The position numbers and the translations under genes are program-made. DNA of 64,000 nt from Candidatus Aceula meridiana (GTDB taxonomy: Bacteria > Omnitrophota > Gorgyraeia > Zapsychrales > Aceulaceae), in NCBI GenBank assembly GCA_030765185.1, contig JAVCDE010000027.1, positions 46,132 to 110,131 on the forward strand, in the 5' to 3' direction. The notes beneath the pieces are model-generated. The model did no database searches. It saw nothing but the letters and a program-made list of their open reading frames with translations, and was not told where the DNA came from. Every line of letters starts with the position of its first letter. Within the stretch, counting starts at the first letter, position 1. Of the stretch, positions 1 through 51,370 are shown one piece after another.

Positions 1-2
1 TT

Positions 3-1280: not shown

Positions 1281-1902
1281 AAAATTAAATGAAATTGACA
1301 TTAAGACATTGTTCAAGCCTGATACTTTTCAAGGAGCTCTTAATTTTGAGCAGCTACAAAATAATCTCTTCAAGAGAAAAGATATCTTGATCAACATTGT
1401 CCTCGTCCTCGCGACACTTTTTGGAATTAATGCTGTTATCAAAAACAAAAATGCCGAATCAACTCTATTAAAAACAGAAATTGAAGAGCTTGAAAAAAAG
1501 ACAGATGCAATTGCTGAATACGAAAAACAAGAAAAAGTCAAAAATAATTTTATGGCGAGTGTCCCCAAAGGCTTTAGCGGATTCACAGATGTTATTGACA
1601 AAGTTTCTGTTCTTGCCGATGAAGCAGGTGTCAAAATCCGCTCATTTGATCCGGCTGAATCTCAAGAAAGTGATTTTTTCGTTACTGAAAAGGTCGGATT
1701 TCTTGTCTCAGCTGATAACTACAATGACATGCTATCATTTGTAAATAAAATCGAAACCTCCGAAGAAGGCTTACGGATTGATTCTTGGTCAAATAACGAA
1801 AAAAGAAGAGTTCGGCAAAAAATAAATGAAATAAAAAAAGAGGAGGCCTCTGAAGATTACATTCTTCGTTTATCTTCGATTAGGCTAAAAAATGCGAAAT
1901 AA
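1267..1902 (+). CDS. PilO-like pilus assembly protein
   Basis: 211 aa. N-terminal TM helix (LINIVLVLATLFGINAVI), then a coiled-coil and periplasmic domain. Start overlaps the preceding gene. Position matches pilO in a pilMNOPQ operon. Confidence 0.45.
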   Translation: MIDLKKLNEIDIKTLFKPDTFQGALNFEQLQNNLFKRKDILINIVLVLATLFGINAVIKNKNAESTLLKTEIEELEKKTDAIAEYEKQEKVKNNFMASVPKGFSGFTDVIDKVSVLADEAGVKIRSFDPAESQESDFFVTEKVGFLVSADNYNDMLSFVNKIETSEEGLRIDSWSNNEKRRVRQKINEIKKEEASEDYILRLSSIRLKNAK

Positions 1903-2341
1903 ATATTTATTTATACTCTTAAGTATTATTGTCTTCACTTGCATGGCGAATCGCGCATCTGCTTCGTCGAAGAATATCAATTTGACCGAAATTCGAAACC
2001 CTTTTGAATCTTGGCTTCCAAAAATCGAAGAAATTGTTGAAAAAACCCAAGAAACCACTAAGATAATAAAAGAAGTTGCTAAGCCGAAGGTTGAAGAATC
2101 AATATTGCCAATAGAAACACCAAAAATTCTGAAGCCAAAAGAACCGCCAAGCGTTCGAATAACCGGACTCATATGGAATAGCGATCGGCCGCAAGCAATT
2201 ATTAATAATCATGTCGTTTCTGAAGGGGATGCCGTTGAAGATTTCACAATTGTTCGCATACACCCTAGCGGCATTGATATTGATTTTTTGGGTGAGATTT
2301 TTACAATTAAAATCGAAAAAACTCAAGTTAATGCCATATAA
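1892..2341 (+). CDS. PilP-like periplasmic/lipoprotein pilus assembly protein
   Basis: 149 aa with an N-terminal signal peptide (LFILLSIIVFTCMANRASA). Small periplasmic protein located just before the secretin gene. Confidence 0.35.
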   Translation: MRNKYLFILLSIIVFTCMANRASASSKNINLTEIRNPFESWLPKIEEIVEKTQETTKIIKEVAKPKVEESILPIETPKILKPKEPPSVRITGLIWNSDRPQAIINNHVVSEGDAVEDFTIVRIHPSGIDIDFLGEIFTIKIEKTQVNAI

Positions 2342-2356
2342 AACGGAGGCATTTTA

Positions 2357-3856
2357 ATGAAAAAAATAGGAAAAAAATTTTTGCTTGTGCTGTGCGTGAG
2401 TGTGTTCACTTTTTTTTCCTTAACAAATTATGGTCTATGCAACTCTCTTTCTCGTTATCATCAAAGCCTCTTTTCTGAATATTCTCAAAGAATTTCAATG
2501 GACTTTAAAGACGCTGACCTACGCAGTGTATTAAAAATCTTCTCCCAACAATCAGGATTAAACTTCATCGCTGCCACAGACGTAGCTAACATGACCATCA
2601 CACTCTACTTAGACGATGTTCCTGTTGAAGAAGCTCTTGAACGCATTCTTTATGCTAATGGGCTCATGTATGAAATTGAACCAGGAAGCGACATTTTTAT
2701 TGTTAAAAAAGTTGAGAAACCTGCACAAAATTTAATTACTCGTGTCTACCCTTTAAAACATGCTACTGTTTCTAGCTCCAAGCTTCTTACGCTTTTTGAA
2801 GATGGGGACGAGGGAAGCTCGTCTTCATCCTCCGGAGGAGAGGACGAAGAATCTAAAGAAGGTATTTTGTTTGCTATCGAAAGCATCTTAACAGTATCCG
2901 GAAAGGTTATTGAAGATTCTAGGACAAACAGTCTTATTGTTACAGATATCCCAAGCCAATTCCCATTGATTGAAAGGACAATTGCTAGTCTCGACGTTCC
3001 TATCGTCCAAGTCCTCATCGAAGTTGAAATGCTTGATATTTCCAAAAATACTGCTGAACAACTTGGAATAAAATTCGGAGATACACTGCTCTCTTTTTCC
3101 GGAGCCAAGCGTGAACACGTCTACCCCTGGGATCAGAATGCCCTTCTTGATAAAGGTTATGAATTTGACACAGAATACACATCTGGCACCATTGACGCAT
3201 CAGGCCTTACAATGATCTTACAATTTCTTAAAACAATTTCCGATACAAAATCTCTTGCAGCGCCAAAGATTTTAACGCTTAATAACCATACAGCAGAACT
3301 CAAACTTTCGACTGATGAAGCTATCGGGGTTACAACCTCAACAACAAGTTCTGAAGGAATCGCAACAGCATCTGTTGAGGCTGAAAGAGCATTAACTGGT
3401 GTTTTTCTAAATGTTACTCCGCAAATTAACCCCCAAACAGGCGAGATTATTATGTCTGTTTATCCTCGTGTCATTGAAGCAAGAACAGGGGAAACATTTG
3501 CAAGTACAACCTTCCGCGATCCTGAAGAGAGAGGAACAAAATCAATTTTAAAAACTTCTGACGGCGAAACAATTTACATCGGAGGACTCAAGAGAATTGA
3601 AGCAGTAAAAACAATCACAAAAATTCCTATTCTTGGCGATATTCCTTTTATAGGTAGCGCCTTCCGCCACAAAGGTGCAAGTGAAGAAGAACGTGAACTT
3701 GTGATTTTTATTACTCCACGCATCATAAGAGATGCGAATTCCATTCCGTCAACAGCAGCAAACACTTTCATGCGTGAACAAAACTATCCCGAACGTAAAC
3801 TTCAAGAAATCGAACGCGCCCTGTTAATCACAGAACAACGACGACGTACAAAATGA
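2357..3856 (+). CDS. pilQ: Type IV pilus / T2SS secretin (PilQ/GspD family)
   Basis: Signal peptide. N0-type secretin N domain (DADLRSVLKIFSQQSGLNFIAATDV). C-terminal secretin motif (IPILGDIPFIGSAFRHKG...ELVIFITPRII). Confidence 0.8.
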   Translation: MKKIGKKFLLVLCVSVFTFFSLTNYGLCNSLSRYHQSLFSEYSQRISMDFKDADLRSVLKIFSQQSGLNFIAATDVANMTITLYLDDVPVEEALERILYANGLMYEIEPGSDIFIVKKVEKPAQNLITRVYPLKHATVSSSKLLTLFEDGDEGSSSSSSGGEDEESKEGILFAIESILTVSGKVIEDSRTNSLIVTDIPSQFPLIERTIASLDVPIVQVLIEVEMLDISKNTAEQLGIKFGDTLLSFSGAKREHVYPWDQNALLDKGYEFDTEYTSGTIDASGLTMILQFLKTISDTKSLAAPKILTLNNHTAELKLSTDEAIGVTTSTTSSEGIATASVEAERALTGVFLNVTPQINPQTGEIIMSVYPRVIEARTGETFASTTFRDPEERGTKSILKTSDGETIYIGGLKRIEAVKTITKIPILGDIPFIGSAFRHKGASEEERELVIFITPRIIRDANSIPSTAANTFMREQNYPERKLQEIERALLITEQRRRTK

Positions 3857-5559
3857 GCCGATTACGATTAGGTGAAATCTTAGTCCAGCAAGGATTAATT
3901 AATGAAAGTCAACTGGAACAATCTATTGCTGCCCAAAAACAGCAGCGAGGTCGCATAGGCGAAGTTCTGATACGCCTAGGGTTCGTGCGTGAACTTGATA
4001 TTGTTGTTGCCCTCGCTAAACAACTCAGTGTCCCATATGTTTCCAAAGAATCAGGATTGTTAAAACCACAGTCCCCGGAAATCTTAACCCTTGTTCCTAA
4101 AGATTTTGCCCAGAAAAATTTTGTTCTTCCGCTTTCACTCAACAACAACTCTCTGACATGCGCCATTTTTGACCCCTTAGACCTTCTTTTAATTGATAAT
4201 CTGCGAAAAATTACCGGACGAGACATTAACCTAGTCCTTGCTACTAAAAAAGATATCGCCCAATCTACAGAAGAGTGGTATAGCAAAGAAGGGAAGTCAG
4301 CCCTCTCTGAGGCTGTTCAGGATACCTATGATGTCTCACCTAAGGATGAAGTCCATATTGAACGCAAACACGAGACAGAGCTTAGCATTGACAAACTTAT
4401 TGAACGAGCAGAAGAAGCTCCTGTTGTTAAACTTGTTGACCTCATTATTAGACAAGCGATTGATCAAAGAGCCAGCGATATTCACATTGAATCTTATAAA
4501 GATAAAATTTCTCTACGTTATCGCGTTGATGGCGCCTTATGCGAACTTCCACCACCGGCTCGCCATCTTCTTTTGCCAATTATCTCAAGAATTAAAATTC
4601 TGGCAAAACTCGATATTGCAGAAAAACGTCTTCCTCAAGATGGCGCAATTATTGCCAAATTGGAAGATAGAACCGTTGACCTTCGTATTTCAACAATTCC
4701 AACGGTCTGGGGCGAAAAAGTTGTTATGCGTATTCTTGACAAAGGAGCTATCGAGCTTGACATCGCGACTCTTGGCTTTGATCAAGGTCAGCTTGACTCT
4801 ATTCGTAAGGCTATAAAAGCACCTTTTGGATTAGTTTTTGTAACAGGTCCTACAGGAAGCGGAAAATCGACAACACTTTATTCATCTTTAAGCGAAATTA
4901 TCGACTCAACGAAAAATATTATGACATGCGAAGACCCTGTGGAATACCGGCTTAATGGCGTTAACCAAGTTCAAGTACGGCCAGAAATTGGCCTAACATT
5001 TGCCTCAGCTTTACGCTCATTCTTGCGACAAGACCCTGATATTATTATGGTCGGGGAGGTTCGAGATATGGAAACTGCGCAAATCTGCGTGCGTGCCGCC
5101 TTAACAGGCCATCTTGTTTTAAGCACGCTTCACACCAACGATGCGGCCTCGGCGGTTACACGCCTCATAGACATTGGAATTCCATCGTACCTTTTAACGC
5201 CATCGCTTGTTTTAGTTATTGCTCAGCGCCTAGCCCGCAAATTATGCCCACAATGCAAAGAGGCCTACGAGCCTTCCGCTGAACAACTTGGAAAAATTAA
5301 AATTAAATCAGATTTAATTTATCGTGCTAAAGGTTGCGAAAAATGTAACCATACCGGATACAAAGGACGTATGGTTGTTAGCGAGGTCCTACTCGTTGAC
5401 GATGTCATTAAAAAAATTATCGGAACAACTTCTTCTTATACAGATATTCGTGATGCTGCTCAAAAAAATGGCATGAGCACCTTATTTGAAACCGGCATTA
5501 AAAAAGTCGAGGCTGGCATAACAAGTCTTGATGAAATCTTGAGCGTAACATTAACATAA
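3853..5559 (+). CDS. pilB: Type IV pilus assembly ATPase PilB (GspE family)
   Basis: N-terminal GSPII_E N domain (LGEILVQQGLINESQLEQ). Walker A (GPTGSGKST). Asp box and tetracysteine motif (CPQC...CEKC). Start overlaps pilQ stop (ATGA). Confidence 0.9.
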   Translation: MSRLRLGEILVQQGLINESQLEQSIAAQKQQRGRIGEVLIRLGFVRELDIVVALAKQLSVPYVSKESGLLKPQSPEILTLVPKDFAQKNFVLPLSLNNNSLTCAIFDPLDLLLIDNLRKITGRDINLVLATKKDIAQSTEEWYSKEGKSALSEAVQDTYDVSPKDEVHIERKHETELSIDKLIERAEEAPVVKLVDLIIRQAIDQRASDIHIESYKDKISLRYRVDGALCELPPPARHLLLPIISRIKILAKLDIAEKRLPQDGAIIAKLEDRTVDLRISTIPTVWGEKVVMRILDKGAIELDIATLGFDQGQLDSIRKAIKAPFGLVFVTGPTGSGKSTTLYSSLSEIIDSTKNIMTCEDPVEYRLNGVNQVQVRPEIGLTFASALRSFLRQDPDIIMVGEVRDMETAQICVRAALTGHLVLSTLHTNDAASAVTRLIDIGIPSYLLTPSLVLVIAQRLARKLCPQCKEAYEPSAEQLGKIKIKSDLIYRAKGCEKCNHTGYKGRMVVSEVLLVDDVIKKIIGTTSSYTDIRDAAQKNGMSTLFETGIKKVEAGITSLDEILSVTLT

Positions 5560-5596
5560 CCTACTTATCATAAAGCCTTTTTATTAAAATCACTCT

Positions 5597-6844
5597 ATGC
5601 TTACCTTTTCATATACTGTTAAAGACGAAAATGGAAAAACCATTAAAGGAATGGCAGATGCCGTTGATAAGGAAACCCTTGTCGAACAGCTCCAGAGACA
5701 AGGATACTACATTGTCAATGTGGCCCTTCCGACAAAAGAATCTCTAGAGGCTACACCTGTACAAAAATCTAAACCTACAAAAAAATTCTCTCATAACAAA
5801 GTTGACATGTCCGACAAGTTGCTCTTTTCCAGACAACTGGCAACCATGCTTGAAGCCGGCGTTAATCTTTTGCGAAGCCTTAATGTTATTGTTGGTCAAA
5901 TCGAAAGCAAACAATTTCATAAAATTTTGACCCAAGTTCGTGACGATATCGAACAAGGTCTCTCTCTAAGCGTTGCTTTAGCAAAATATCCAAAAGTTTT
6001 CAGTACTCTTTGGGTTAGCTTAGTTGAAGTTGGTGAAGCTTCAGGGACCATGCCAATGGTTCTTGATAAACTTGCCTTTTATATTGAACGCGAAGAAAAA
6101 TTTCGCTCAGCCGTTATTTCAGGCCTTATTTATCCAGCGCTTTTATTTATTGTGGCCATTGGAGCTATTTTGGTCTTTGCCTTTGTTATCGGGCCCAAGT
6201 TTGAAGACCTCTATGGCCAATTTGACGCAGAGCTTCCTGCGCTGACAGTAGCAGTCCTTGGATTTTTTAAATTATTGACCAAACATTTTTTTCAGCTTTT
6301 AGGCGTAATATGTGTTATATTTGTATTAGCGAGAAAATATTTTAGAACACCAATCGGACAGGTGCAATTGGAAGGCTTTATCTTTATGCTTCCAGTGGCA
6401 GGTCCGGTTATTAAAACGATTGTTGTGGAGAAATTTACTTCGCAGATGTCTATTTTAATAGACACAGGTGTTCCTATTCTCTATGCGCTAGATATTGTTG
6501 AACGCATGATAGGAAACAAAACCTGCGAAGCTGTGATAAAGCAGATGAAAGAAAAGGTCCGGGAAGGAAGACTCGTCTCCGAGGAGATGTCTAAAAGTAA
6601 TTTTTTCCCTCCCATGGCCACCCAGATGATCGCTATTGGAGAAGAAACAGGCGAACTGGGAAAAATGCTAAATCACGTTGCGGAATTCTACCAACGCTTC
6701 GTAGAAACCTTCATCCACCGTTTCGCCACAATCTTCGAACCCTTTATGCTTATTTTTATGGGTGCCACTATTGGTGTTTTGGTCCTCGCCATGTTTCTGC
6801 CGATATTTGATATTTCGTCTATGGCAGGAGGAGGAGGAGGATAA
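5597..6844 (+). CDS. pilC: Type IV pilus inner-membrane platform protein PilC (GspF family)
   Basis: 415 aa with a duplicated T2SSF domain and three TM regions. Typical pilB-pilC order. Confidence 0.85.
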   Translation: MLTFSYTVKDENGKTIKGMADAVDKETLVEQLQRQGYYIVNVALPTKESLEATPVQKSKPTKKFSHNKVDMSDKLLFSRQLATMLEAGVNLLRSLNVIVGQIESKQFHKILTQVRDDIEQGLSLSVALAKYPKVFSTLWVSLVEVGEASGTMPMVLDKLAFYIEREEKFRSAVISGLIYPALLFIVAIGAILVFAFVIGPKFEDLYGQFDAELPALTVAVLGFFKLLTKHFFQLLGVICVIFVLARKYFRTPIGQVQLEGFIFMLPVAGPVIKTIVVEKFTSQMSILIDTGVPILYALDIVERMIGNKTCEAVIKQMKEKVREGRLVSEEMSKSNFFPPMATQMIAIGEETGELGKMLNHVAEFYQRFVETFIHRFATIFEPFMLIFMGATIGVLVLAMFLPIFDISSMAGGGGG

Positions 6845-6963
6845 GGCTCTTTGACAATAATGAAAGGGGGTTTAAAAAAAAGAAAAAAATTCTTGAGATT
6901 AAATAAATTACGGTATAATAATAGTATAAATTTTATAAAACCAGGTTAAATAAGGAGGAAAAA

Positions 6964-24517: not shown

Positions 24518-26407
24518 ATGTTTAGATCGCTGAAATTTTTTGTCGCCCAGACTGTGTCAAGCGAAACAATCCTCAAAAATCTTGTTGCATTTGGCTACAC
24601 GCATGTGGATGCCATTTTAGAAGAAGGGGACTTTTGTAAACGCGGTGGAATTATTGATATCTTTCCAACCAACTTTGATTCGCCGGTACGCATCGATTTA
24701 GACGATGACAAAATCCGTTCAATTGCCAGCTACAATCTCACAACAGGAAAATCCATCTGGCAACACCACATTGTCATTATCCTTCCTAAAAGAAAATCTA
24801 AAAAAGACAACTTTTCTTCCGAGACACCATTAAATAATTTTGTTGATGTCGCCCAAGGCGATTATGTTGTTCATAACAACCATGGCATCGGAAAATTCTT
24901 AGGCATTGAAGAACGTGTATTCAAAGATGAAAAAAAGGAACACCTTGTTCTTGAATACGCAAACGGAGACAAACTTTTTGTTCCTAAAAATGATATCCAC
25001 TTAGTACAAAAATATGTTGGCTTTACCAAAAAACCACCGCGCCTTTACCGCCTTGGTTCGGGAAAGTGGAAAAAAATCCGCGCGCGTATTCAAAAACGTA
25101 TTCAACAATTCGCCGCTGAGCTTTTGCATATTCAAGCCTTAAGGGCAAGCCTCGAAGGTTTTTCATTTGACAAGAATAATTCTTGGCAAAAAGAATTTGA
25201 AAAGAACTTTTCTTTTAAAGAGACTCCGGATCAAAAAAGGGCCTGGCAAGAAGTTAAGGCTGATATGGAATCTAAATACCCGATGGACAGGCTTATTTGC
25301 GGCGATGTCGGCTATGGGAAAACCGAAGTGGCTATGCGGGCCGCCTTTAAGGCCGTCATGAATAACAAGCAAGTTGCTATATTAGTCCCGACAACAATTT
25401 TAGCGGAGCAACATTATTATAATTTCTTAAAACGAGTTAAACAGTTTCCGGTTGAAATCGCGATGCTCAACCGATTCCGCACGCCCAAAGAACAAACTGA
25501 AATCATTAAGAGTCTTGCTAAAGGGGGCGTTGATATTATTATCGGAACACATCGCCTTTTGTCAGATGATATTATCTTTAAAGATTTGGGACTTGTTATT
25601 ATTGATGAGGAACAACGTTTTGGAGTGAAGGCTAAGGAAAAACTAAAACGTTATCGGCTTTTAGTTGATGTCTTGACATTAACGGCAACGCCAATTCCGC
25701 GCACCCTTTACATGGCTATTACAGGGGCTCGTGATATGTCAGCAATTAATACACCACCGCAAAATCGTATTCCTGTTTCAACTCATCTTATTGAATTTGA
25801 CGAAGATATTATTAAAGACGCCATCTCCCGAGAACTTCGGCGAAAAGGGCAAACGTTTTTTCTCCATAATCGGGTTGAAGATATTGATAAAATTGGTAAT
25901 ATTATAAAAAAGCTTGTTCCCAGGGCGCAAGTCTGCGTAGCTCATGGGCAAATGCCTGGTCGCCTTTTGGAAAGAATTATGTTACAATTCTTAAAAGGTG
26001 ACATAGATATTCTCGTATGCACCACGATCATTGAATCTGGCATTGACATCCCGAACGCCAATACCCTTCTTGTTAACAGGGCTGACCGTTTTGGTTTGGC
26101 CGATTTACACCAATTGCGCGGAAGGGTTGGCCGCTTTACAAATAAGGCATATTCTTATTTTATTACACCTCCAAAAAATGCAATTTCACCACAGGCTAAA
26201 TCAAGACTTGAGGCTATTGCCAAATACAGCGGGTTAGGGGCAGGATTCAATATCGCATTTGAAGATTTGCAAATCCGCGGAGGAGGAAATTTGCTCGGGG
26301 AACAGCAACATGGATACATTTCTTCCGTTGGGTTTGATTTATATTGCCGTCTTTTAAAGGAATCTGTTGAAAATCTAAGAAACGCACACAAAGGAGACAC
26401 CGAATGA
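24518..26407 (+). CDS. mfd: Transcription-repair coupling factor Mfd, minimal form (lacks the UvrB-homology module and C-terminal D7)
   Basis: 629 aa. D3-like region (GGIIDIFPTNFDSPVRIDLDDDKIRSI). RNAP-interacting CarD-like domain (LVLEYANGDKLFVPKNDIHLVQKYVG). SF2 helicase motifs GDVGYGKTEVAMRAAF, DEEQRFGV, TLTATPIPRTL and HQLRGRVGR. Confidence 0.8.
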   Translation: MFRSLKFFVAQTVSSETILKNLVAFGYTHVDAILEEGDFCKRGGIIDIFPTNFDSPVRIDLDDDKIRSIASYNLTTGKSIWQHHIVIILPKRKSKKDNFSSETPLNNFVDVAQGDYVVHNNHGIGKFLGIEERVFKDEKKEHLVLEYANGDKLFVPKNDIHLVQKYVGFTKKPPRLYRLGSGKWKKIRARIQKRIQQFAAELLHIQALRASLEGFSFDKNNSWQKEFEKNFSFKETPDQKRAWQEVKADMESKYPMDRLICGDVGYGKTEVAMRAAFKAVMNNKQVAILVPTTILAEQHYYNFLKRVKQFPVEIAMLNRFRTPKEQTEIIKSLAKGGVDIIIGTHRLLSDDIIFKDLGLVIIDEEQRFGVKAKEKLKRYRLLVDVLTLTATPIPRTLYMAITGARDMSAINTPPQNRIPVSTHLIEFDEDIIKDAISRELRRKGQTFFLHNRVEDIDKIGNIIKKLVPRAQVCVAHGQMPGRLLERIMLQFLKGDIDILVCTTIIESGIDIPNANTLLVNRADRFGLADLHQLRGRVGRFTNKAYSYFITPPKNAISPQAKSRLEAIAKYSGLGAGFNIAFEDLQIRGGGNLLGEQQHGYISSVGFDLYCRLLKESVENLRNAHKGDTE

Positions 26408-34706: not shown

Positions 34707-35531
34707 ATGTCCTTAACAAAAAGTCAATTCTCAAAACGTAACATTATCATTGGGGTCGGCATCTTTTGTGTTGCGAGCCTTGTTGTCGCTTTTGCCTTAA
34801 AGTCCATTCGTACAAATAGCCTCACTCAGACTCCAAAAGCCGCTCCTGAGCCCATAGGACGCATTGCCATCATTCTCGATGATTGGGGCTACAATTCCAA
34901 AGGTTGCGCCTTTTTAGAAAAAATCGATATCCCTGTCGCAGTGTCAATTCTTCCTGAGTTACACTATAGCCAAGACATGGCGCGCTGCGCACATCAGAAC
35001 AATAAAGAAGTTATGTTGCATCTTCCACTCGAGCCTCATAAATTCTCTGAAACATATCCGGACGGCTACGTTATTTTATCTTCAATGACGAAAGATGAAG
35101 TCTTTGCCCATCTTGATAAATTCTTTAAAAATATTCCGTTTGTTGTCGGGGCCAATAACCATATGGGGTCAAAGGCAACTGAAAACAGAGAGCTCATGAA
35201 AACTATCTTTTCATATCTCCATAAAAATAATTTCTTCTTCATCGATAGCTTAGTCTCCAGCGATTCAATCTGCGAATCAGTGGCTCAAGGGGAGGGTGTT
35301 TCATTTCTCCGCCGAAATGTTTTTTTGGATAACGAAGCAAACTCAGAATATATCAAAGGGCAACTTGATCAGCTTGCCAAACGGGCAAGAAAATATGGCT
35401 TCGCCCTTGGGATTGGTCATGACAGGCCCTTGACTCAGAAAGCCCTCTTAGAATACGGACAAGAAATGAAGAATCAAGGATTTGATTTCGTAACAGTTAA
35501 AGAACTAATTGATTATGCCAAAAAAAAATAA
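34707..35531 (+). CDS. Divergent polysaccharide deacetylase family protein (YibQ-like)
   Basis: 274 aa. N-terminal TM, IAIILDDWGYN and HLPLEP motifs typical of the YibQ family. Confidence 0.6.
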   Translation: MSLTKSQFSKRNIIIGVGIFCVASLVVAFALKSIRTNSLTQTPKAAPEPIGRIAIILDDWGYNSKGCAFLEKIDIPVAVSILPELHYSQDMARCAHQNNKEVMLHLPLEPHKFSETYPDGYVILSSMTKDEVFAHLDKFFKNIPFVVGANNHMGSKATENRELMKTIFSYLHKNNFFFIDSLVSSDSICESVAQGEGVSFLRRNVFLDNEANSEYIKGQLDQLAKRARKYGFALGIGHDRPLTQKALLEYGQEMKNQGFDFVTVKELIDYAKKK

Positions 35532-36528
35532 AATAAACATCCTAGGCATTGAAACCTCTTGCGATGAAACAGCGGCTTCGGTTATCCAGAGCGGAAAACT
35601 CATTCTTTCAAATGTTGTCGCCTCAAGCTTGCATCTGCATAAAAAATACGGAGGGATCATCCCAGAGATTGCATCACGCAAACAACTCGAGCTGATCGAC
35701 AAGGTTGTTGAACGTGCTCTGAAAAATGCAAAGCTTAAGATAAACGACATTCATGCAATAGCCGTCACAACACATCCCGGATTAGTTGGTTCGCTTCTAG
35801 TTGGAATTTCTTGGGCGCGCGCATTGTCTTACGCGCTAAAAAAACCATTAATTGAAATTGATCATATCAAGGCGCATCTTTACGCTGGGTTTCTTAAGGA
35901 TATGAAGTCAAAAACAGACACTTCCTCTCAGAGGCTTCCCGCAGTTGGCCTTGTCGCCTCAGGCGGTCATTCTAGCTTGTTTTATGTAAAATCATTTGAT
36001 AATTTTAAGCTTCTAGGACAAACACGAGATGATGCCGCCGGAGAAGCCTATGATAAAGTCGCCCGCATTCTGGGATTAGGATACCCGGGAGGCCCTGTTA
36101 TTGATCGCCTTGCGAAAAAGGGGAAAAACAAAGATATCCATTTCCCAAGAGCTGATCTTGGCCAAACGCTTGATTTTAGCTTTAGTGGATTAAAAACGGC
36201 AGTTTACTATTATGAAAAAAAATGGAAGGATAAAAAATCTTTGCCCATTAATAAAATCGCTTACGCATTTCAAGAAAGTGTTGTTCAATCGCTTGTCAAA
36301 AAAAGTATTTCAGGTTGCTTGCAAAAGAAAGTTAAAACCCTTATTGTAGGAGGAGGGGTAGCAGCCAATTCTGCCTTGCGGAAAAAGTTACAAGAAGCCG
36401 GCCAACTTCATAGAATTAAAGTTATTTTTCCAAGCCTTAATCTTTGTATGGACAATGCAGCCATGATTGCTGGCTTAGGATACCACTTCTTTATAAAAAA
36501 ACAAAAAAATAAAGGGAGGAAGCATTGA
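35509..36528 (+). CDS. tsaD: tRNA N6-adenosine threonylcarbamoyltransferase
   Basis: 339 aa Kae1/TsaD family (ILGIETSCDETAASV, VASGGHSSL, GGGVAAN). Confidence 0.88.
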   Translation: MIMPKKNKINILGIETSCDETAASVIQSGKLILSNVVASSLHLHKKYGGIIPEIASRKQLELIDKVVERALKNAKLKINDIHAIAVTTHPGLVGSLLVGISWARALSYALKKPLIEIDHIKAHLYAGFLKDMKSKTDTSSQRLPAVGLVASGGHSSLFYVKSFDNFKLLGQTRDDAAGEAYDKVARILGLGYPGGPVIDRLAKKGKNKDIHFPRADLGQTLDFSFSGLKTAVYYYEKKWKDKKSLPINKIAYAFQESVVQSLVKKSISGCLQKKVKTLIVGGGVAANSALRKKLQEAGQLHRIKVIFPSLNLCMDNAAMIAGLGYHFFIKKQKNKGRKH

Positions 36529-36968
36529 TCGAGCAAATTACCGAAACCTTAATCAAAGTTCTCTTAACTACTTTTCTATGTGGGGCGATTGGAGCAGAAA
36601 GATTTACTCGACATAAAGGAGCAGGAATGCGAACCCACATCTTAATTGGCGTCGGAGCAACGCTGCTCGTATTGACTTCTTATCATGTTTTTGATATATA
36701 TAAGGATGTTGGAGACATTGACCCGACTCGCATTATCGCCGCAATTGTAACAGGAATTGGTTTTTTATGTGCCGGAACAATTATTCGAGGAGGGGCAAAT
36801 GTTACAGGCCTCACCACAGCGGCAACTTCTTGGACTGTTGCCGGAATCGGTATTTCAGTTGGCTGTGGAAACTATATCGCTGCTATCATTGTTACTATTG
36901 TTGTTTTCTGGGTCCTTTTGGGGCTTCGGTCGGCGGAAAAGAAAATTGAAAGATTTTTTAACAGTTAA
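36525..36968 (+). CDS. MgtC/SapB family membrane protein
   Basis: 147 aa. 4-5 TM helices. MgtC signature (GAIGAERFTRHKGAGMRTHILIGVGA). Confidence 0.7.
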   Translation: MIEQITETLIKVLLTTFLCGAIGAERFTRHKGAGMRTHILIGVGATLLVLTSYHVFDIYKDVGDIDPTRIIAAIVTGIGFLCAGTIIRGGANVTGLTTAATSWTVAGIGISVGCGNYIAAIIVTIVVFWVLLGLRSAEKKIERFFNS

Positions 36969-36991: not shown

Positions 36992-37504
36992 ATGAGAGAT
37001 AAAAGAAATAAAAAGAATACAGAAGAAAAAGCAATTGAAATTAACGCAGAAATGCAAGGAACCCTATCTTTTGGTGACCCTGTAAACTTACGCATCAATG
37101 GCATGTTTGAAGGAACACTGCAGACACGTGGCACATTAACAATCGGAGAAGAAGCTTCTGTTGAAGCACGAATTACCGGTGAAAGCATCATTGTTGCCGG
37201 AAAAGTTAAAGGCGACGTCTCTGCTCAGACAATGCTGGTTCTTATGCCAACAGCTGAACTTACAGGAAACATCACAACTCCAAAGCTTAATATCGTTGAA
37301 GGCGCTATTTTCCAAGGCAAGTGCCACATGCTCAACGAAAGCCTTACCCTAGAAGAAGCCTCGAAATACCTCGAGCTTGATATTCCTTCGGTTATTGAGA
37401 TGGCAAATGCTGGCAATATCCCAGCGACTCGAAGTGGAGACGAATGGAAATTTGAACGTGCAAAGATTGACCGATGGATCGTGCTTGAAAAAGCAAAGGG
37501 CTAA
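36992..37504 (+). CDS. Bactofilin (polymer-forming cytoskeletal protein) with a fused C-terminal excisionase-type HTH domain
   Basis: Bactofilin beta-helix repeats (GTLTIGEEASVEARITGESIIVAGKVKGDVSA...NIVEGAIFQGKCHM). C-terminal HTH_17-like segment (LTLEEASKYLELDIPSVIEMANAGNIPATRSGDEWKFERAKIDRWI). Confidence 0.65.
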   Translation: MRDKRNKKNTEEKAIEINAEMQGTLSFGDPVNLRINGMFEGTLQTRGTLTIGEEASVEARITGESIIVAGKVKGDVSAQTMLVLMPTAELTGNITTPKLNIVEGAIFQGKCHMLNESLTLEEASKYLELDIPSVIEMANAGNIPATRSGDEWKFERAKIDRWIVLEKAKG

Positions 37505-37540
37505 TCCCTCTCACTAAAAACTAAGGGAAAAAACTAACCT

Positions 37541-37843
37541 ATGGCTGATCAATTTATCTCTGTTCGAGAAGCTGCCCAAGCTTTAAGAATTTCAGAGCGA
37601 AAAATTATGGAACTGGTAGACGAAGAAAGGCTCCAGGCCTATCGCATCGCAGGCCAATTTATTCGTTTTAAACGAAGTGACGTCTTGTCTTTAAAAAGTG
37701 CTGGAACCGTTGCCTCGGAAACAACTCATCACGAATACACAAGGCGTGAGCGATTTTACGACTTTATTTATTTTAATGATTTTTATATTCTTTCTTTTTT
37801 TATTGTTCTTTTTTTCCTCTATATCATCTTTACAAACGCATGA
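37541..37843 (+). CDS. Excisionase-family HTH DNA-binding protein with a C-terminal hydrophobic (TM) tail
   Basis: HTH_17-like N-terminus (FISVREAAQALRISERKIMELVDEERLQAYRIAGQFIRFKRSDV). Residues 73-100 are strongly hydrophobic (FYDFIYFNDFYILSFFIVLFFLYIIFT). Confidence 0.5.
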   Translation: MADQFISVREAAQALRISERKIMELVDEERLQAYRIAGQFIRFKRSDVLSLKSAGTVASETTHHEYTRRERFYDFIYFNDFYILSFFIVLFFLYIIFTNA

Positions 37844-37910
37844 TCCGATCCTTACCTTTTAAGAAAATTCTTGATATTTGTTTTGCTTTCGCGTAAAATG
37901 CACTCTCTCT

Positions 37911-37987
37911 GGCGGCGTAGCTCAGCCCGATAGAGCACTCGGTTCATACCCGATTTGTCACTGGTTTAAATCCAGTCGCCGCCACCA
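37911..37987 (+). tRNA. tRNA with CAU anticodon (elongator tRNA-Met or tRNA-Ile2; not initiator)
   Basis: Manual fold: acceptor GGCGGCG/CGCCGCC with a paired 1:72, anticodon loop TTCATAC, T-loop TTTAAAT, encoded CCA. Promoter TTGATA-17-TAAAAT upstream. Initiator hallmarks (1:72 mismatch, three G:C pairs in the anticodon stem) are absent. Confidence 0.8.
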
Positions 37988-38078: not shown

Positions 38079-38657
38079 TTGAGAAAAAAATTTAGCCTAC
38101 TCATCCTAATAATAACATTACTTCTGTCGCCTAAAATTACTTTTGCCCAGGGAGAAGGTATTGACTCCATTTATAAAAAAGAAAAAATTGAGTCCATTTA
38201 TGATGTTAAAAAAATCGAAGATGTTTCCGTAGGACGCCTTCGTCTGTACATCCTTTCTGATGAAAACCGCAAAAAATACGAAGAGGCGCTTGCCAAGTGG
38301 GAAGCCGCCAAATCAAAACGTATCACTATCGAAAATAAAATTGCCGACACTAAAAAGAAATTGCGTGATTTTAAGCTAAACAAGCCATCAATGGTCGGAA
38401 AAAAAGAACAAAAGCTTGTTAAAAAAATTGAAAAAGCAAAAACAGTAGTTGAAAAGGCGCAAAGAAAACTTAAAAAGCTTGAATCTGAATACGACTCAAA
38501 ATTCGCGAAAGAAAAAGCAAAAATCCAGAAAAAAGAAGATAAAATAGCTAAAAAAATTAAAAAAGAACAAGGAAAACTTGCAAAAGCAAAAAAAATGGAA
38601 GAAGCGGCTCTCAAAAAACTAAAATCTCTAGAAAAACAACTTAAAATACCCAAATAA
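38079..38657 (+). CDS. Secreted lysine-rich coiled-coil protein (hypothetical)
   Basis: TTG start with an AAAGGAAAAAA RBS. Signal peptide (LLILIITLLLSPKITFAQG). The remaining 170 aa are about 30% Lys with heptad-like KKxEKAK repeats. Confidence 0.45.
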   Translation: MRKKFSLLILIITLLLSPKITFAQGEGIDSIYKKEKIESIYDVKKIEDVSVGRLRLYILSDENRKKYEEALAKWEAAKSKRITIENKIADTKKKLRDFKLNKPSMVGKKEQKLVKKIEKAKTVVEKAQRKLKKLESEYDSKFAKEKAKIQKKEDKIAKKIKKEQGKLAKAKKMEEAALKKLKSLEKQLKIPK

Positions 38658-39315: not shown

Positions 39316-40302
39316 ATGATCAAAAAAATCACCCGATTCTCACAAAGCCAAAACTTACTGAATCCCGGAATGAAAATTATTGTCGGAGTTTCCGGAGGTC
39401 CGGATTCAATAGCTCTATTACATGTTTTGAGCAAGCTACGCCACCGCCTTGGACTTAAAATTTATGTTGCACACTTTAATCATGGAATTCGAAGCGAAGC
39501 TGCGAAAGACCAGAATTTTGTAAAAACTTTTTCCAAACAACTCAATTTGTCGTTTTATTCAAAAAAAGAAAAAATTCAAAAAAAAAATAAATCCCTAGAG
39601 GAAAGAGCAAGAGAGGCCCGATTCGCTTTTTTATGTGCTCTCGCTAAGAAAACAAATGCCGATGCCATTGCCCTGGGTCACACGCAGAACGATCTCGCCG
39701 AGACAGTCCTCATGAGAATAATACGAGGAAGTGGTCTTTTGGGCTTACGCAGCATTCTCCCTAAGCGCATCATCAACAAAAACGCTATCATTCGTCCTCT
39801 TTTGTGTGTGAGTCGCACAGAAGTTAACAAATATCTAAAAAAACATAAGCTTAAATACTGTGTAGATAAAACAAATTCTCAGCAAGATTTCCTTCGCAAT
39901 AAAATCCGTCTAACCCTTATTCCCATTCTTGAAAAGAATTATAACCCAAATATCAAAGAAATTCTAATTTCCTTATCTCAAACATCATCTTTAGACTATG
40001 AATATTTAGAATTACAAGGGAGGAAAGCCTTCAAAAAACTTTCAAAAAACTCAGTAAAACTAAAGTCTGTTCACCTCAACCAAAAAAACTTTAAAAATCT
40101 TCACCCTGCTTTGCAACGCATTGTTGTTCGGTTGTCTATCGAAAACGTCCAAGGAAGCATGCGCCGCCTAACTCTGAAACACATTCTAGAAATTGAAAAG
40201 TTGCTCAAGGCTGACTCACCTTATGGTGTTGTTAGCTTGCCTCAAGGAGTAGAGGTTCTTAAAAAACATCAGGATCTCCTCATTCAAAAGAGTTCCCATT
40301 AA
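39316..40302 (+). CDS. tilS: tRNA(Ile)-lysidine synthetase
   Basis: 328 aa. PP-loop (IIVGVSGGPDSIALLHVL). TilS N-terminal domain motifs (VAHFNHGIR, ALGHTQNDLAETVLMRIIRG). Confidence 0.8.
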   Translation: MIKKITRFSQSQNLLNPGMKIIVGVSGGPDSIALLHVLSKLRHRLGLKIYVAHFNHGIRSEAAKDQNFVKTFSKQLNLSFYSKKEKIQKKNKSLEERAREARFAFLCALAKKTNADAIALGHTQNDLAETVLMRIIRGSGLLGLRSILPKRIINKNAIIRPLLCVSRTEVNKYLKKHKLKYCVDKTNSQQDFLRNKIRLTLIPILEKNYNPNIKEILISLSQTSSLDYEYLELQGRKAFKKLSKNSVKLKSVHLNQKNFKNLHPALQRIVVRLSIENVQGSMRRLTLKHILEIEKLLKADSPYGVVSLPQGVEVLKKHQDLLIQKSSH

Positions 40303-50164: not shown

Positions 50165-51370
50165 TTACAAATGACGCTCCACTTTCCCTTTAATTTCTTT
50201 AAAAGTAGGCTTTGGCTCAACACGCTTGCGCCCAAAACAAAGACCCATAGTCTCGTAAAAGGGAACAAGGTCAAGATCAACATGTCTTTGCTTAATCGCT
50301 TCTTTTGTTGCCATATAGCGCACTTCATCTCCTTGGATTCCAACAACAGTAACCCCAAAAATTCCCTTAGTTAAAAGAAGAACTGCGGCGGCTCCGGCTT
50401 CGCGGCCAAAATTTGCATCATAAGCTGAAGAGCGTCCGCAGCGAACTAAATGTCCCGGGGCAACAGAGCGAACTTCCGGAATTTCATAAAGTTTCTCAAC
50501 AAACATTTTTTCCTTTTTCATAAATTCTGTTATTTCTGGATCTTTTTTAAAACGCTTAGTGAGCTCCTGGCAGACATACTTACCAGCACCGGAAAGTTTT
50601 TTATGTCCAAAAGTATCAAACCCGGCTGACTCATCTGTTAATTCTTCGCCGTTTGAATTCTTTAGTCCTTCAGCAACAATAATCAAATAAGTTCCAGCGC
50701 GTACATCGCTCTGAGAAATCCGACGAGTAAAACGTTTCTTAGCATGCTCGTAAAGAGCATCAAAATCTACGGGAATCTCCGGAATCAAAACAGCATCTGC
50801 ATCAGCAGCCACACCACCGCGAAAAGCTGTATGTCCTGCGTAACGCCCAAAAACTTCCATAACAATAATGCGATTGTGTGTGCGACCCGTTGTTTTTAAA
50901 TCTTCGGCAAATGCCGCAATACGGCTAATGGTTGAATCTGCACCGACAGAATATGTCTGCAAATCCAAATCCATAGTTTTTGGAGCATGCACACATTTGA
51001 TTCCATGCTCAGAAAGGTCAACAATAACGCTTCCGGTATCATCGCCTCCGCTAATAACAAGCCCATCGATGTTAAATTTCTTTAACCCTTCTTTAATACG
51101 ATCATATTTCTTTTCATCATTAATTTTCTTAACCTTAACGCGAGAATGCCCAGCTTCAGACCCTGCAAGAGAAGAATTAACATTATCAATACGCTCTGGT
51201 GTAAGCTCGACTAAGCTGTCAAACTCTACTAAATTATAAAGCCCGGCATAACCATTAGGAATCACATAGCAAGAAACACCTTGCTTATGAGCCATCTGTG
51301 CTACACCCTTGACAACAGCGTTTAATCCTCCGCAATCTCCACCGCTTGTAATGATACCAATATTTTTCAT
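50165..51370 (-). CDS. pfp: 6-phosphofructokinase, pyrophosphate-dependent signature
   Basis: PFK family (IGIITSGGDCGGLNA). GGDDTG has Asp at the E. coli Gly104 position. APKTMDLD has Lys at the Gly124 position. Both substitutions are diagnostic of PPi-PFKs. Confidence 0.8.
   Translation of the reverse strand: MKNIGIITSGGDCGGLNAVVKGVAQMAHKQGVSCYVIPNGYAGLYNLVEFDSLVELTPERIDNVNSSLAGSEAGHSRVKVKKINDEKKYDRIKEGLKKFNIDGLVISGGDDTGSVIVDLSEHGIKCVHAPKTMDLDLQTYSVGADSTISRIAAFAEDLKTTGRTHNRIIVMEVFGRYAGHTAFRGGVAADADAVLIPEIPVDFDALYEHAKKRFTRRISQSDVRAGTYLIIVAEGLKNSNGEELTDESAGFDTFGHKKLSGAGKYVCQELTKRFKKDPEITEFMKKEKMFVEKLYEIPEVRSVAPGHLVRCGRSSAYDANFGREAGAAAVLLLTKGIFGVTVVGIQGDEVRYMATKEAIKQRHVDLDLVPFYETMGLCFGRKRVEPKPTFKEIKGKVERHL

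Follow-up and report, generated by a model that had tools for sequence, protein, structure and literature searches.

A bactofilin fused to an excisionase-type winged helix and its tail-anchored HTH partner form a conserved two-gene module in Omnitrophota

The 64,000-nucleotide stretch of the Candidatus Aceula meridiana contig JAVCDE010000027.1 analyzed here (contig positions 46,132 to 110,131; hereafter, the window) contains two short adjacent genes, of which one encodes a fusion of a bactofilin with a winged helix-turn-helix (HTH) domain (BacHTH), and the other encodes a small membrane protein with an HTH domain of its own (HTH-TM). The pair is preceded by the gene for an MgtC family protein and followed by a tRNA gene. 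In window coordinates, the features are as follows.

36525..36968, + strand: MgtC-family membrane protein, membrane domain only, 147 aa (PF02308, E 1.5e-34)
36992..37504, + strand: BacHTH, bactofilin-winged HTH fusion protein, 170 aa (PF04519 and PF12728)
37031..37330, + strand: bactofilin beta-helix core of BacHTH, residues 14-113 (Foldseek, profile alignment to 6ria/2n3d, invariant columns)
37340..37501, + strand: C-terminal excisionase/MerR-type winged HTH of BacHTH, residues 117-170 (Foldseek, column composition, net charge)
37541..37843, + strand: HTH-TM, tail-anchored HTH_17 protein, 100 aa (PF12728, E 1.9e-9)
37871..37899, + strand: sigma-70-like promoter match TTGATA-17-TAAAAT, a consensus match directly upstream of the tRNA gene
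37911..37987, + strand: tRNA-Met(CAT), that is, tRNA(CAU) gene (ARAGORN)

The BacHTH and HTH-TM genes share one reading frame.

The first-pass annotation described the product of the first gene as a 170-aa protein with a bactofilin core and a C-terminal HTH_17/excisionase-like domain, and profile searches support both assignments. The ORF, which includes ..IVEGAIFQGKCHM, matches the Bactofilin family over residues 15-111 (PF04519; E 1.4e-24, 86.6 bits vs the Pfam cutoff of 27.9) and HTH_17 over residues 118-163 (PF12728; E 4.5e-8, 33.7 bits vs 27), and the excisionase model TIGR01764 (‘excise’) gives 33.9 bits, above its cutoff of 28.8. Structure prediction agrees: the AlphaFold2 model (mean pLDDT 84.6) comprises a beta-helix (residues 14-113), a gap of about 4 residues and a winged HTH (residues 117-169), with most of residues 21-100 at pLDDT of about 87-95, lower values at the ends of the core and less confidence in the inter-domain region (pLDDT 74-76; pTM 0.61). 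The linker between the domains is about 4 residues long in the main clade and 10-25 residues long in distant members of the family.

No stop codon or frameshift separates the two domains, and the same unbroken two-domain ORF is present in independent assemblies. Homologs of BacHTH form 1,112 clusters at 90% identity, with both Pfam domains detected in all 120 matches listed, and 226 GTDB species representatives encode the fusion, every organism-level label being Omnitrophota; the latter count is a lower bound that is biased to the main clade, because the genomes were scanned with a profile of the closer alignment (A1), the profile of the distant fusions having diverged too far for this purpose. 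Such recurrence, across over 1,100 protein clusters and the genomes of 226 species representatives, shows that the fusion is genuine and not an artifact; in every Omnitrophota genome found here to carry it, this bactofilin subfamily occupies one conserved locus. Several close relatives with a bactofilin domain alone (P0255, P0261, P0264 and P0276) were rejected as cases of HTH loss, their low-complexity C-termini resembling frameshifted assemblies. With regard to the distant lineages (L085, L087, L089), a protein search with P0271 retrieved bactofilin-only neighbors exclusively. In the literature searched, we found no publication describing a bactofilin-HTH fusion, in line with the initial impression that the fusion is unusual; the BacHTH/HTH-TM pair is uncharacterized and represents a variant on the known bactofilin theme.

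The second gene had been read as encoding another HTH_17 domain followed by a C-terminal membrane anchor, and this reading stands. Residues 6-50 of HTH-TM match HTH_17 (E 1.9e-9, 38.1 bits vs the cutoff of 27; TIGR01764, 41.1 bits vs 28.8), and in the AlphaFold2 model (pLDDT 81.5), the C-terminal hydrophobic tail is a predicted helix (residues 80-99). The protein thus consists of a cytoplasmic winged HTH (residues 5-54) with a wing rich in Arg and Lys (R35, R42, K44), a linker, a strongly conserved juxtamembrane motif, YT..ER..DF(F/I)YFNDFY, and a single transmembrane helix (residues 80-99), accompanied by a basic juxtamembrane stretch, that ends the protein. A BLASTP comparison of the HTH domains of BacHTH and HTH-TM yielded no match, so the two domains are not recent duplicates.

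The association of the two genes is nearly invariant: HTH-TM lies directly 3' of BacHTH in 88 of the 89 related loci (L089 is the sole exception), and the pairing holds in lineages that are only 33-47% identical and in different neighborhoods, such as the distant L083, L085 and L087, with their differing flanks. Both domains of BacHTH evolve under purifying selection (dN/dS of about 0.03-0.13, with dS saturated), the beta-helix being the more strongly conserved part (dN/dS 0.03-0.07). BacHTH and HTH-TM constitute a chromosomal, vertically inherited two-gene module in every Omnitrophota locus examined.

The pair is embedded in a conserved housekeeping array, gatAB-ctp-yibQ-tsaD-mgtC-[pair]-tRNA-SNase-tilS-ftsH, with the same gene order on both sides across at least 80 species. 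The mgtC gene, which is separated from BacHTH by 23 nt within this long co-directional array, immediately precedes the pair in roughly half of the loci; it is thus a common neighbor without being an obligatory one, and is found also in the distant lineage L085/L086, whose context otherwise differs. The tRNA(CAU) gene starts 67 nt past the stop codon of HTH-TM, just where the first-pass annotation placed it, and is the first downstream tRNA in 56 of the 77 related loci with enough downstream sequence. The sigma-70-like match directly upstream of the tRNA gene suggests that the latter is a separate transcription unit; this is a match to the consensus only, and the region contains fewer of these than the shuffled controls do.

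An Xis-like gene beside a tRNA could signify an integration site, and the first-pass annotation entertained the possibility that the locus is the scar of a mobile element. In principle, the remnant or cargo of an integrated element would fit the generic association of HTH_17 proteins with tRNA-adjacent islands and the PHROG excisionase matches, which are weak and at the domain level (E 1e-4 to 1e-5). Membership in the MAD1 family of the MADS defense system was rejected: the NF047737 equivalog model gives 34.7 and 21.5 bits, far below its cutoff of 80, and the PADLOC matches (E 6e-4 and 3.5e-5) are limited to the domain level. The conservation of gene order on both sides of the pair, with the tRNA fixed in place, argues against this origin. 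The pair and the tRNA are syntenic core genes across Omnitrophota; the 3' end of the tRNA has no repeat in the window, and no att-like repeat was detected; there is no GC anomaly or compositional shift; and, as the first-pass annotation already stated, no integrase is present, neither integrase nor transposase domains being detected among the scanned window ORFs of at least 150 aa. Searches of IMG/VR and phage GenBank identified no relatives, and the plasmid search gave only single-domain matches, without a fusion; a Leptospira plasmid match covering 78% of the query was rejected as a fusion, being an ordinary 147-aa bactofilin without the HTH. The pair lacks the hallmarks of a recombination directionality factor: integrase and att repeat are both missing, the synteny is that of core genes, and neither viruses nor plasmids yielded a relative. 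On the sequence data, derivation from a mobile element is refuted, and judging by synteny, the tRNA(CAU) is an ancestral neighbor of the pair, not an att site.

Bactofilins are known as membrane-bound scaffolds; a short peptide at the N-terminus attaches them, and their disordered tails recruit the clients. The best Foldseek matches of the BacHTH core are the right-handed beta-helices 6rib_A (E 1.8e-4) and 2n3d (E 1.3e-3), and also 6ria. In the profile alignment to 6ria/2n3d, F107 of BacHTH, which is invariant in 47 sequences, aligns with F105 of the Thermus thermophilus bactofilin TtBac and F130 of Caulobacter crescentus BacA, and the F130R substitution disrupts the polymerization interface of BacA (PMC12448750). 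The retention of this interface Phe suggests that the BacHTH beta-helix most likely still polymerizes. The bactofilin membrane-targeting motif, the N-terminal MFSKQAKS in which F2, K4 and K7 are essential (PMC12448750), is absent from BacHTH, which starts with MRDKRNKK in the window and with M-A/G-L-R-D-R-K in the family, without Phe at position 2. Compared with the canonical bactofilins (C. crescentus BacA and T. thermophilus Bac; 2n3d, 6rib), BacHTH has the beta-helix fold and the polymerization Phe in common but lacks the MFSK-type peptide, carries a folded winged HTH in place of the disordered C-terminal tail and comes with an obligate, co-encoded, tail-anchored partner.

Almost all characterized HTH_17, Xis and MerR-N domains bind DNA, and the predicted secondary structure of the HTH domains in BacHTH and HTH-TM follows the beta-alpha-alpha-beta-beta-alpha pattern of the Xis/BldC/MerR N-domain type of winged helix. 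The Foldseek matches of the fused domain are RdfS (8dgl), BldC (6ama), RacA (5i44), Pukovnik Xis (4j2n) and 1y6u, all with probability of at least 0.97 (0.99-1.0 for the four named proteins) and with E-values of 0.09-0.5, which are weak, the domain being so short; sequence searches of the PDB with either HTH gave marginal matches only (Pukovnik Xis, E of about 1). In BldC, the DNA-contacting residues are K26, T27, T29, R30, K33, R47 and R48, and Arg30 reads a base, such that R30A abolishes DNA binding (PMC5859096). At the BldC contact positions, BacHTH has P132, S133, V/L/I135, E/D136, N139 and K/R153 (68%); E136 sits at the Arg30 position, in a column that is E or D in 100% of the sequences, and neither the Lys26 nor the Lys33 position is basic across the family (P/S and N, respectively). 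This register was anchored on D24/D130 and G35/G141, with a BldC sequence that agrees with the residue numbering of PMC5859096. The net charge of the fused domain is -4.1 ± 1.3 over 72 loci (range -7 to 0), acidic in at least 71 of the 72, compared to about +5 for Pukovnik Xis over the aligned 46 residues. Thus, by column composition and net charge (-4), the basic recognition helix and wing with BldC-type DNA contacts are not found in BacHTH. Some conserved basic residues are kept, namely, K125, K/R147, R156 and K158, and could make a wing-based contact with DNA; moreover, the Arg30 position is acidic in HTH-TM, too, and may simply vary within the subfamily, and Pukovnik Xis has Asn there. On these sequence features, DNA binding by the fused HTH appears doubtful. 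The first reading of the locus, namely, direct coupling of a bactofilin scaffold to DNA, is weakened by the acidic character of the fused domain and the replacement of the base-reading Arg by Glu/Asp and should be considered unproven, and a protein-protein role of the fused domain, that is, docking to the basic HTH of HTH-TM, seems at least as likely.

The explanation we favor, with a chance that we would place slightly short of even, is that HTH-TM is the membrane receptor of a BacHTH polymer, the two being joined via their winged-helix domains. Under this model, the beta-helix of BacHTH would polymerize, having lost the usual N-terminal membrane-targeting peptide, and every subunit would display an acidic excisionase/MerR-type winged helix. 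HTH-TM, tail-anchored in the inner membrane and carrying a mildly basic winged helix on a short cytoplasmic tether, would serve the polymer as its dedicated receptor or anchor. Contact between the winged helices could be side by side, head to tail, as in domains of the Xis, BldC and RdfS type; BldC, Xis and RdfS oligomerize in this manner, and head-to-tail contacts between the winged HTH domains of BldC have been reported (PMC5859096). Alternatively, the fused domain might bind the juxtamembrane motif of HTH-TM; under either contact, the bactofilin scaffold would be attached to the membrane. The array might additionally hold DNA, mainly through the basic wing of HTH-TM, but the evidence does not require this. 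The charges of the two domains are of opposite signs (+2.1 ± 1.4 for the HTH of HTH-TM vs -4.1 ± 1.3 for the C-terminal domain of BacHTH, in 72 pairs), although they show no correlation across species (r = -0.06). Inter-protein mutual information, calculated from 70 pairs, is headed by alignment-end and phylogenetic artifacts, and a few pairs linking the C-terminal domain with the partner wing reach z of about 4.3-4.5. If the two winged helices dock, this would be a new mode of bactofilin membrane attachment and a reuse of the excisionase fold for protein-protein contact.

In the membrane protein RodZ, a cytoplasmic HTH binds MreB and is followed by a transmembrane segment. By likeness to RodZ-MreB, the cytoplasmic HTH of a membrane protein could bind a cytoskeletal polymer, as its receptor, instead of DNA. 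RodZ and HTH-TM are analogous, not homologous: RodZ has an XRE-type HTH (HTH_25), is bitopic with the N-terminus inside and possesses a periplasmic domain, whereas HTH-TM has only HTH_17 and is tail-anchored, lacking any periplasmic part. Binding of a chlamydial bactofilin to RodZ was considered as a precedent and dropped, the respective paper reporting no interaction (10.1101/2020.10.19.346502).

The receptor model has to be weighed against several alternatives. One possibility, not a likely one in our estimate but a serious contender, is a direct chromosome-membrane tether, in which both winged helices would bind DNA cooperatively, side by side like Xis or BldC, with the polymer and the tail-anchored protein pinning a chromosomal region to the membrane, analogous to RacA-DivIVA or bactofilin-PadC-ParB. 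Both proteins exceed the HTH_17 and excisionase thresholds, the two HTHs are always co-encoded, the structural neighbors of the fused domain are all DNA-bound winged HTHs, among them BldC, Xis and RdfS, which form filaments, and the chromosome anchor RacA (5i44), and basic residues are found in or after the wing in BacHTH (K/R147, R156, K158) and in the wing of the partner. Furthermore, bactofilins are already tied to chromosome organization in Myxococcus xanthus, where the BacNOP scaffold reaches DNA indirectly via PadC, ParA and ParB-parS (PMC5703909). The resemblance to BacNOP-PadC-ParABS lies in the link between a bactofilin scaffold and chromosome organization; here, however, the putative DNA-binding fold is within the bactofilin polypeptide itself, and no genes for ParA, ParB or PadC adjoin the pair. 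RacA combines the same fold with an oligomerizing module and anchors DNA at the membrane via DivIVA, but in BacHTH, in contrast to RacA and BldC, the oligomerizing module is a bactofilin beta-helix instead of a coiled coil, the domain is acidic, and Glu/Asp replaces the base-reading Arg. Besides the acidity of the fused domain and the acidic residue at the base-reading position in both proteins, the tether is disfavored by the third helix and C-terminal tail, which are not strongly basic, and by the search for operators, repeats and palindromes in and around the operon, which produced only chance-level short matches and no candidate binding site. DNA binding, if it occurs after all, would make BacHTH the first bactofilin with a direct link to DNA. 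The boldest version, in which the pair is a self-contained nucleoid-to-membrane anchor, universal in Omnitrophota, with the polymer, each subunit of which would bear one DNA-binding winged helix, zipping part of the chromosome onto a row of HTH-TM proteins in the inner membrane, strikes us as rather improbable; if true, it would mean that ultra-small PVC bacteria position their chromosome in a new way that does without ParB/PadC-type adaptors. Omnitrophota being an uncultivated phylum of nanobacteria, either outcome would offer a first handle on its cell biology.

Two further readings assign the bactofilin or the HTHs a different task altogether. The HTH could cap the C-terminal face of the beta-helix, leaving the bactofilin as a mere head-to-head dimerization device or spacer for two HTHs. 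In the main clade, the HTH follows the last beta-strand after only about 4 residues, so that the polymerization face could indeed be covered, and bactofilin filaments need both N-N and C-C interfaces (6rib cryo-EM; BacA F130R, PMC12448750). Nevertheless, the interface residue F107 is invariant, the longer linkers of the distant members show that tight capping is not conserved, and the beta-helix is the part of the protein under the stronger constraint, leaving a non-polymerizing dimer with a slim chance. Decidedly unlikely as well, in our view, is a switch in which the HTHs are transcription factors gated by polymerization or membrane sequestration, for example, reporting envelope stress. The precedent is BacR of Bacillus subtilis, an HTH protein that is encoded beside bactofilins, binds them and reaches the membrane through this recruitment; its DNA binding competes with bactofilin binding, and cell-wall stress releases it to the nucleoid (PMC13649987). 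As with BacR (YhbD, DUF4004) and BacE/BacF, an HTH gene shares an operon with a bactofilin gene here (88 of the 89 related loci), and there are envelope-related neighbors, namely, the Ctp protease and the YibQ-like deacetylase, as well as SPOR or PDZ proteins in distant lineages. However, BacR is a separate, soluble DUF4004 protein of Bacillota, whereas here one HTH_17 is covalently fused to the bactofilin and the other is permanently tail-anchored, with no obvious release step; DUF4004 (PF13171) has no match in BacHTH or HTH-TM at E up to 0.1. The close spacing to mgtC and the co-directional array leave no dedicated promoter or operator, and the recognition helix is devoid of DNA-reading residues. 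The fusion itself lends support, from a second phylum, to the recent report that bactofilins and the HTH protein BacR interact physically in Bacillus.

The bactofilin-winged-HTH fusion gene and its immediate surroundings include the following features of the window.

36992–37504, + strand: BacHTH, 170 aa, Bactofilin plus HTH_17 domains
37541–37843, + strand: HTH-TM, the partner protein, 100 aa, HTH_17 at residues 6–50 (E = 1.9e-9), hydrophobic C-terminus
37730–37840: juxtamembrane motif YT..ER..DF(F/I)YFNDFY, HTH-TM residues 64–99
37911–37987: tRNA-Met(CAT) (ARAGORN), 67 nt past the HTH-TM stop codon

The first-pass annotation described BacHTH as a bactofilin core with a C-terminal excisionase-like domain, and profile searches bear this out: PF04519 (Bactofilin) matches residues 15–111 (E = 1.4e-24) and PF12728 (HTH_17) residues 118–163 (E = 4.5e-8), both above the Pfam curated cutoffs, and TIGR01764 (‘excisionase family’) passes its own cutoff. 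The AlphaFold2 model (input alignment of 47 sequences, mean pLDDT 84.6) folds both domains as proposed, with a beta-helix (residues 14–113) separated by about 4 residues from a winged helix-turn-helix (117–169). In Foldseek searches of the PDB, the N-terminal part matches the T. thermophilus and C. crescentus bactofilins (6rib, 2n3d) and the C-terminal part matches the RdfS excisionase, BldC, RacA, and the Pukovnik and Tn916 Xis. The domains abut in the main Omnitrophota clade; distant members have a variable linker of 10–25 residues. A frameshift artefact is excluded because independent assemblies all hold the uninterrupted ORF. For both BacHTH domains and for the partner gene, Nei–Gojobori dN/dS against six relatives falls at ~0.03–0.13, with dS saturated.

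BacHTH matched 1,112 clusters among ~5.8 billion proteins, and the 120 clusters listed are all 150–190 aa long with both Pfam domains. HMMER, run exhaustively over 50%-identity representatives, recovered ~20–30 full-length fusion clusters, with identity down to ~33%, and 226 genomes among the GTDB species representatives encode BacHTH, the 80 retrieved of these bearing either Omnitrophota or generic MAG labels. The HTH-TM of the window is 100% identical to the Candidatus Aceula meridiana protein, so the window is in essence from that organism. Two proteins of the same bactofilin subfamily carry other C-termini, PilZ-like in P0266 and possibly TM in P0267; a conserved N-terminal segment, EK.LDV.A.MQG.L.F.DPVNL, is common to the subfamily including both. 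Database names are generic (‘polymer-forming cytoskeletal protein’, ‘excisionase family DNA binding protein’). Full-text literature searches for bactofilin found nothing in combination with excisionase, a single unrelated review with Omnitroph*, and separate-protein systems only with helix-turn-helix. A large bactofilin survey (PMC12448750) does not use the term ‘DNA-binding’, and in the passages considered, its fusions and architectures comprise experimental constructs, N-terminal motifs, and transmembrane variants. What is new here is the output domain of this bactofilin subfamily, together with the partner dedicated to it.

The conserved unit is the BacHTH and HTH-TM pair. In tblastn searches, HTH-TM directly follows BacHTH in all 82 loci with a partner and, with added loci, in 88 of 89. 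Among related loci, L083 (55% identical) keeps the main gene context and lacks mgtC; L085/L086 (47%) have wholly different flanks (BatD and TPR upstream; PDZ, TPR, and PolA downstream) and retain the mgtC-BacHTH-HTH-TM order; in L087 (34%), the pair comes after SPOR and TPR-PDZ genes, and the partner, an HTH protein of 97 aa, has its TM segment at the C-terminus. The sole exception, L089, is a 34%-identical variant in which the next ORF encodes a membrane protein rather than an HTH protein. In positions 1–6850 of that locus (JGI 3300009777, Ga0105164_10002154), the bactofilin-HTH_17 protein P0403 ends a magnetosome-like cluster (MamF_MmsF, an HTH_3 regulator, a Volactin-type actin, and a ParA/MipZ-like ATPase with an AMPK1_CBM domain) and may be a magnetosome-associated bactofilin variant.

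The window and an Omnitrophota contig with a 65%-identical fusion share one order, gatA-gatB-ctp(S41/PDZ)-Polysacc_deac_2-tsaD-mgtC-BacHTH-HTH-TM-...-tRNA(CAU)-SNase-tilS-ftsH-folP-cdaA. By tblastn, tsaD lies upstream of the pair in almost all loci and mgtC between tsaD and BacHTH in about half. The tRNA(CAU) gene, located by ARAGORN where the first reading had put it, is the first tRNA downstream of the pair in 56 of the 77 Omnitrophota loci with enough sequence, and is an ancestral neighbor of the pair. The 3′ half of the tRNA has no second copy in the window with up to 3 mismatches; in line with the first reading, no integrase or transposase domain occurs among the scanned window ORFs of at least 150 aa. 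GC content is flat over the region, IMG/VR and phage GenBank entries contain no relative, and plasmids yield single-domain matches only, the one long match, from a Leptospira plasmid, being a plain bactofilin. Matches in PADLOC, PHROG, and MADS are weak, domain-level, and below family cutoffs. Given the conserved core-gene context and the lack of an att repeat, an integrase, and viral or plasmid relatives of the fusion, we reject the earlier reading of the locus as the scar of an element.

HTH-TM fits its initial description as a second HTH_17 protein with a C-terminal membrane anchor, its model consisting of a winged HTH (5–54), a flexible linker, a short helix (68–78), and a terminal helix (80–99). 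Homologs stop 0–3 residues past the hydrophobic segment, so HTH-TM is predicted to be tail-anchored, the HTH lying on the cytoplasmic side. The stretch leading up to and into the membrane helix holds a motif, Y-T-x-x-E-R-x-x-D-F-F-Y-F-N-D-F-Y, that is strongly conserved among 47 homologs, more so than the HTH of the same protein (D74 and Y82 invariant; F75, Y77, N79, and F81 conserved in at least 90%); it has no known counterpart.

According to PMC12448750, the Phe mutations TtBac F105R and BacA F130R block polymerization. The equivalent BacHTH residue, F107, is invariant in the family, which supports, without proving, the prediction that BacHTH polymerizes; that the protein is instead a non-polymerizing dimer appears improbable. 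The same paper gives MFSKQAKS as the canonical membrane-targeting peptide, with F2, K4, and K7 essential; BacHTH has no peptide of this type, its N-terminus reading M-(A/G)-L-R-D-R-K... in the family at large and MRDKRNKK in the window. This lack, with a tail-anchored protein always encoded alongside, suggests that HTH-TM supplies the membrane anchor. We tentatively favor a membrane-anchored bactofilin scaffold for which HTH-TM would be the receptor. Contact would be made through the winged-helix domains of the two proteins, which are oppositely charged and of a family that habitually packs head-to-tail. Alternatively, the juxtamembrane motif of HTH-TM may be the actual bactofilin-binding peptide, reminiscent of PbpC, whose binding to BacA runs through a short conserved peptide in the cytoplasm (PMC12448750).

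Ranked second, and rather doubtful, is the original proposal that BacHTH couples the scaffold directly to DNA. BldC contacts DNA through K26, T27, T29, R30, W31, and K33 of the recognition helix and H46, R47, and R48 of the wing; R30 reads guanine and has its counterpart in an Arg used by RacA, and binding is lost in R30A (PMC5859096). In a short pairwise register anchored on D24/D130 and G35/G141, which carries this mapping, the BacHTH equivalents are P132 (P/S/T), S133, I135 (V/L/I), E136, M137, and N139, with E or D in place of the base-reading Arg in 47 of 47 sequences. The last 55 residues of BacHTH are acidic (net charge −4.1 ± 1.3, range −7 to 0, 72 species), against +2.1 ± 1.4 for the HTH of HTH-TM in the same number of species and about +5 for the aligned stretch of Pukovnik Xis. 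The acidic helix is suggested to be derived because P0300, a triple HTH_17 repeat protein that aligns with the fused domain, has basic recognition helices (YKLAKEG). However, basic residues are conserved in and past the BacHTH wing (K/R147, R156, K158), HTH-TM is likewise acidic at the R30-equivalent position, and Pukovnik Xis has Asn there. DNA binding may thus occur, as the fold would allow, though the residues point away from the canonical mode. In B. subtilis, the HTH protein BacR binds the bactofilins BacEF, which keep it at the membrane, so that it loses DNA binding (PMC13649987). The fusion can be read, by analogy, as independent support for such an HTH-bactofilin interaction; a BacR-like regulatory switch ranks below the DNA tether, and we give it little credence.

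The neighbors of the pair include envelope-related genes (Ctp, a YibQ-like deacetylase, SPOR and PDZ proteins, MgtC), a gene context in keeping with the envelope association usual for bactofilins. The MgtC/SapB gene (window 36525–36968; L085 5318–5755) encodes the membrane domain only and lies just before the pair in about half of the loci, also in distant L085 with otherwise unrelated flanks, a hint that the three genes may be functionally linked. The tRNA(CAU) gene lies between tsaD (35509–36528) and tilS (39316–40302), genes for t6A37 synthesis and for lysidine-34 synthesis on tRNA-Ile2(CAU), respectively, an arrangement that most Omnitrophota loci (56 of 77) share; if this tRNA is Ile2 rather than elongator Met, it would be a TilS substrate. 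The ORF at 38079–38657, between tRNA(CAU) and the SNase-like gene, encodes an extremely Lys/Glu-rich 192-aa protein with a signal peptide and no assigned family, found only in some relatives (L004, L005, L007) and replaced elsewhere by other small ORFs. Across window positions 1–64000, almost all genes are on the + strand; of the large genes on the minus strand, phosphofructokinase (50165–51370) alone has an assigned family. A type II secretion/type IV pilus-like set (secretin, T2SSE ATPase, T2SSF) occupies 2357–6844, and an Mfd/TRCF-like ORF (24518–26407; UvrB_inter, CarD_TRCF_RID, DEAD, Helicase_C), at 629 aa far below typical Mfd length, may reflect either reduction or a split gene.
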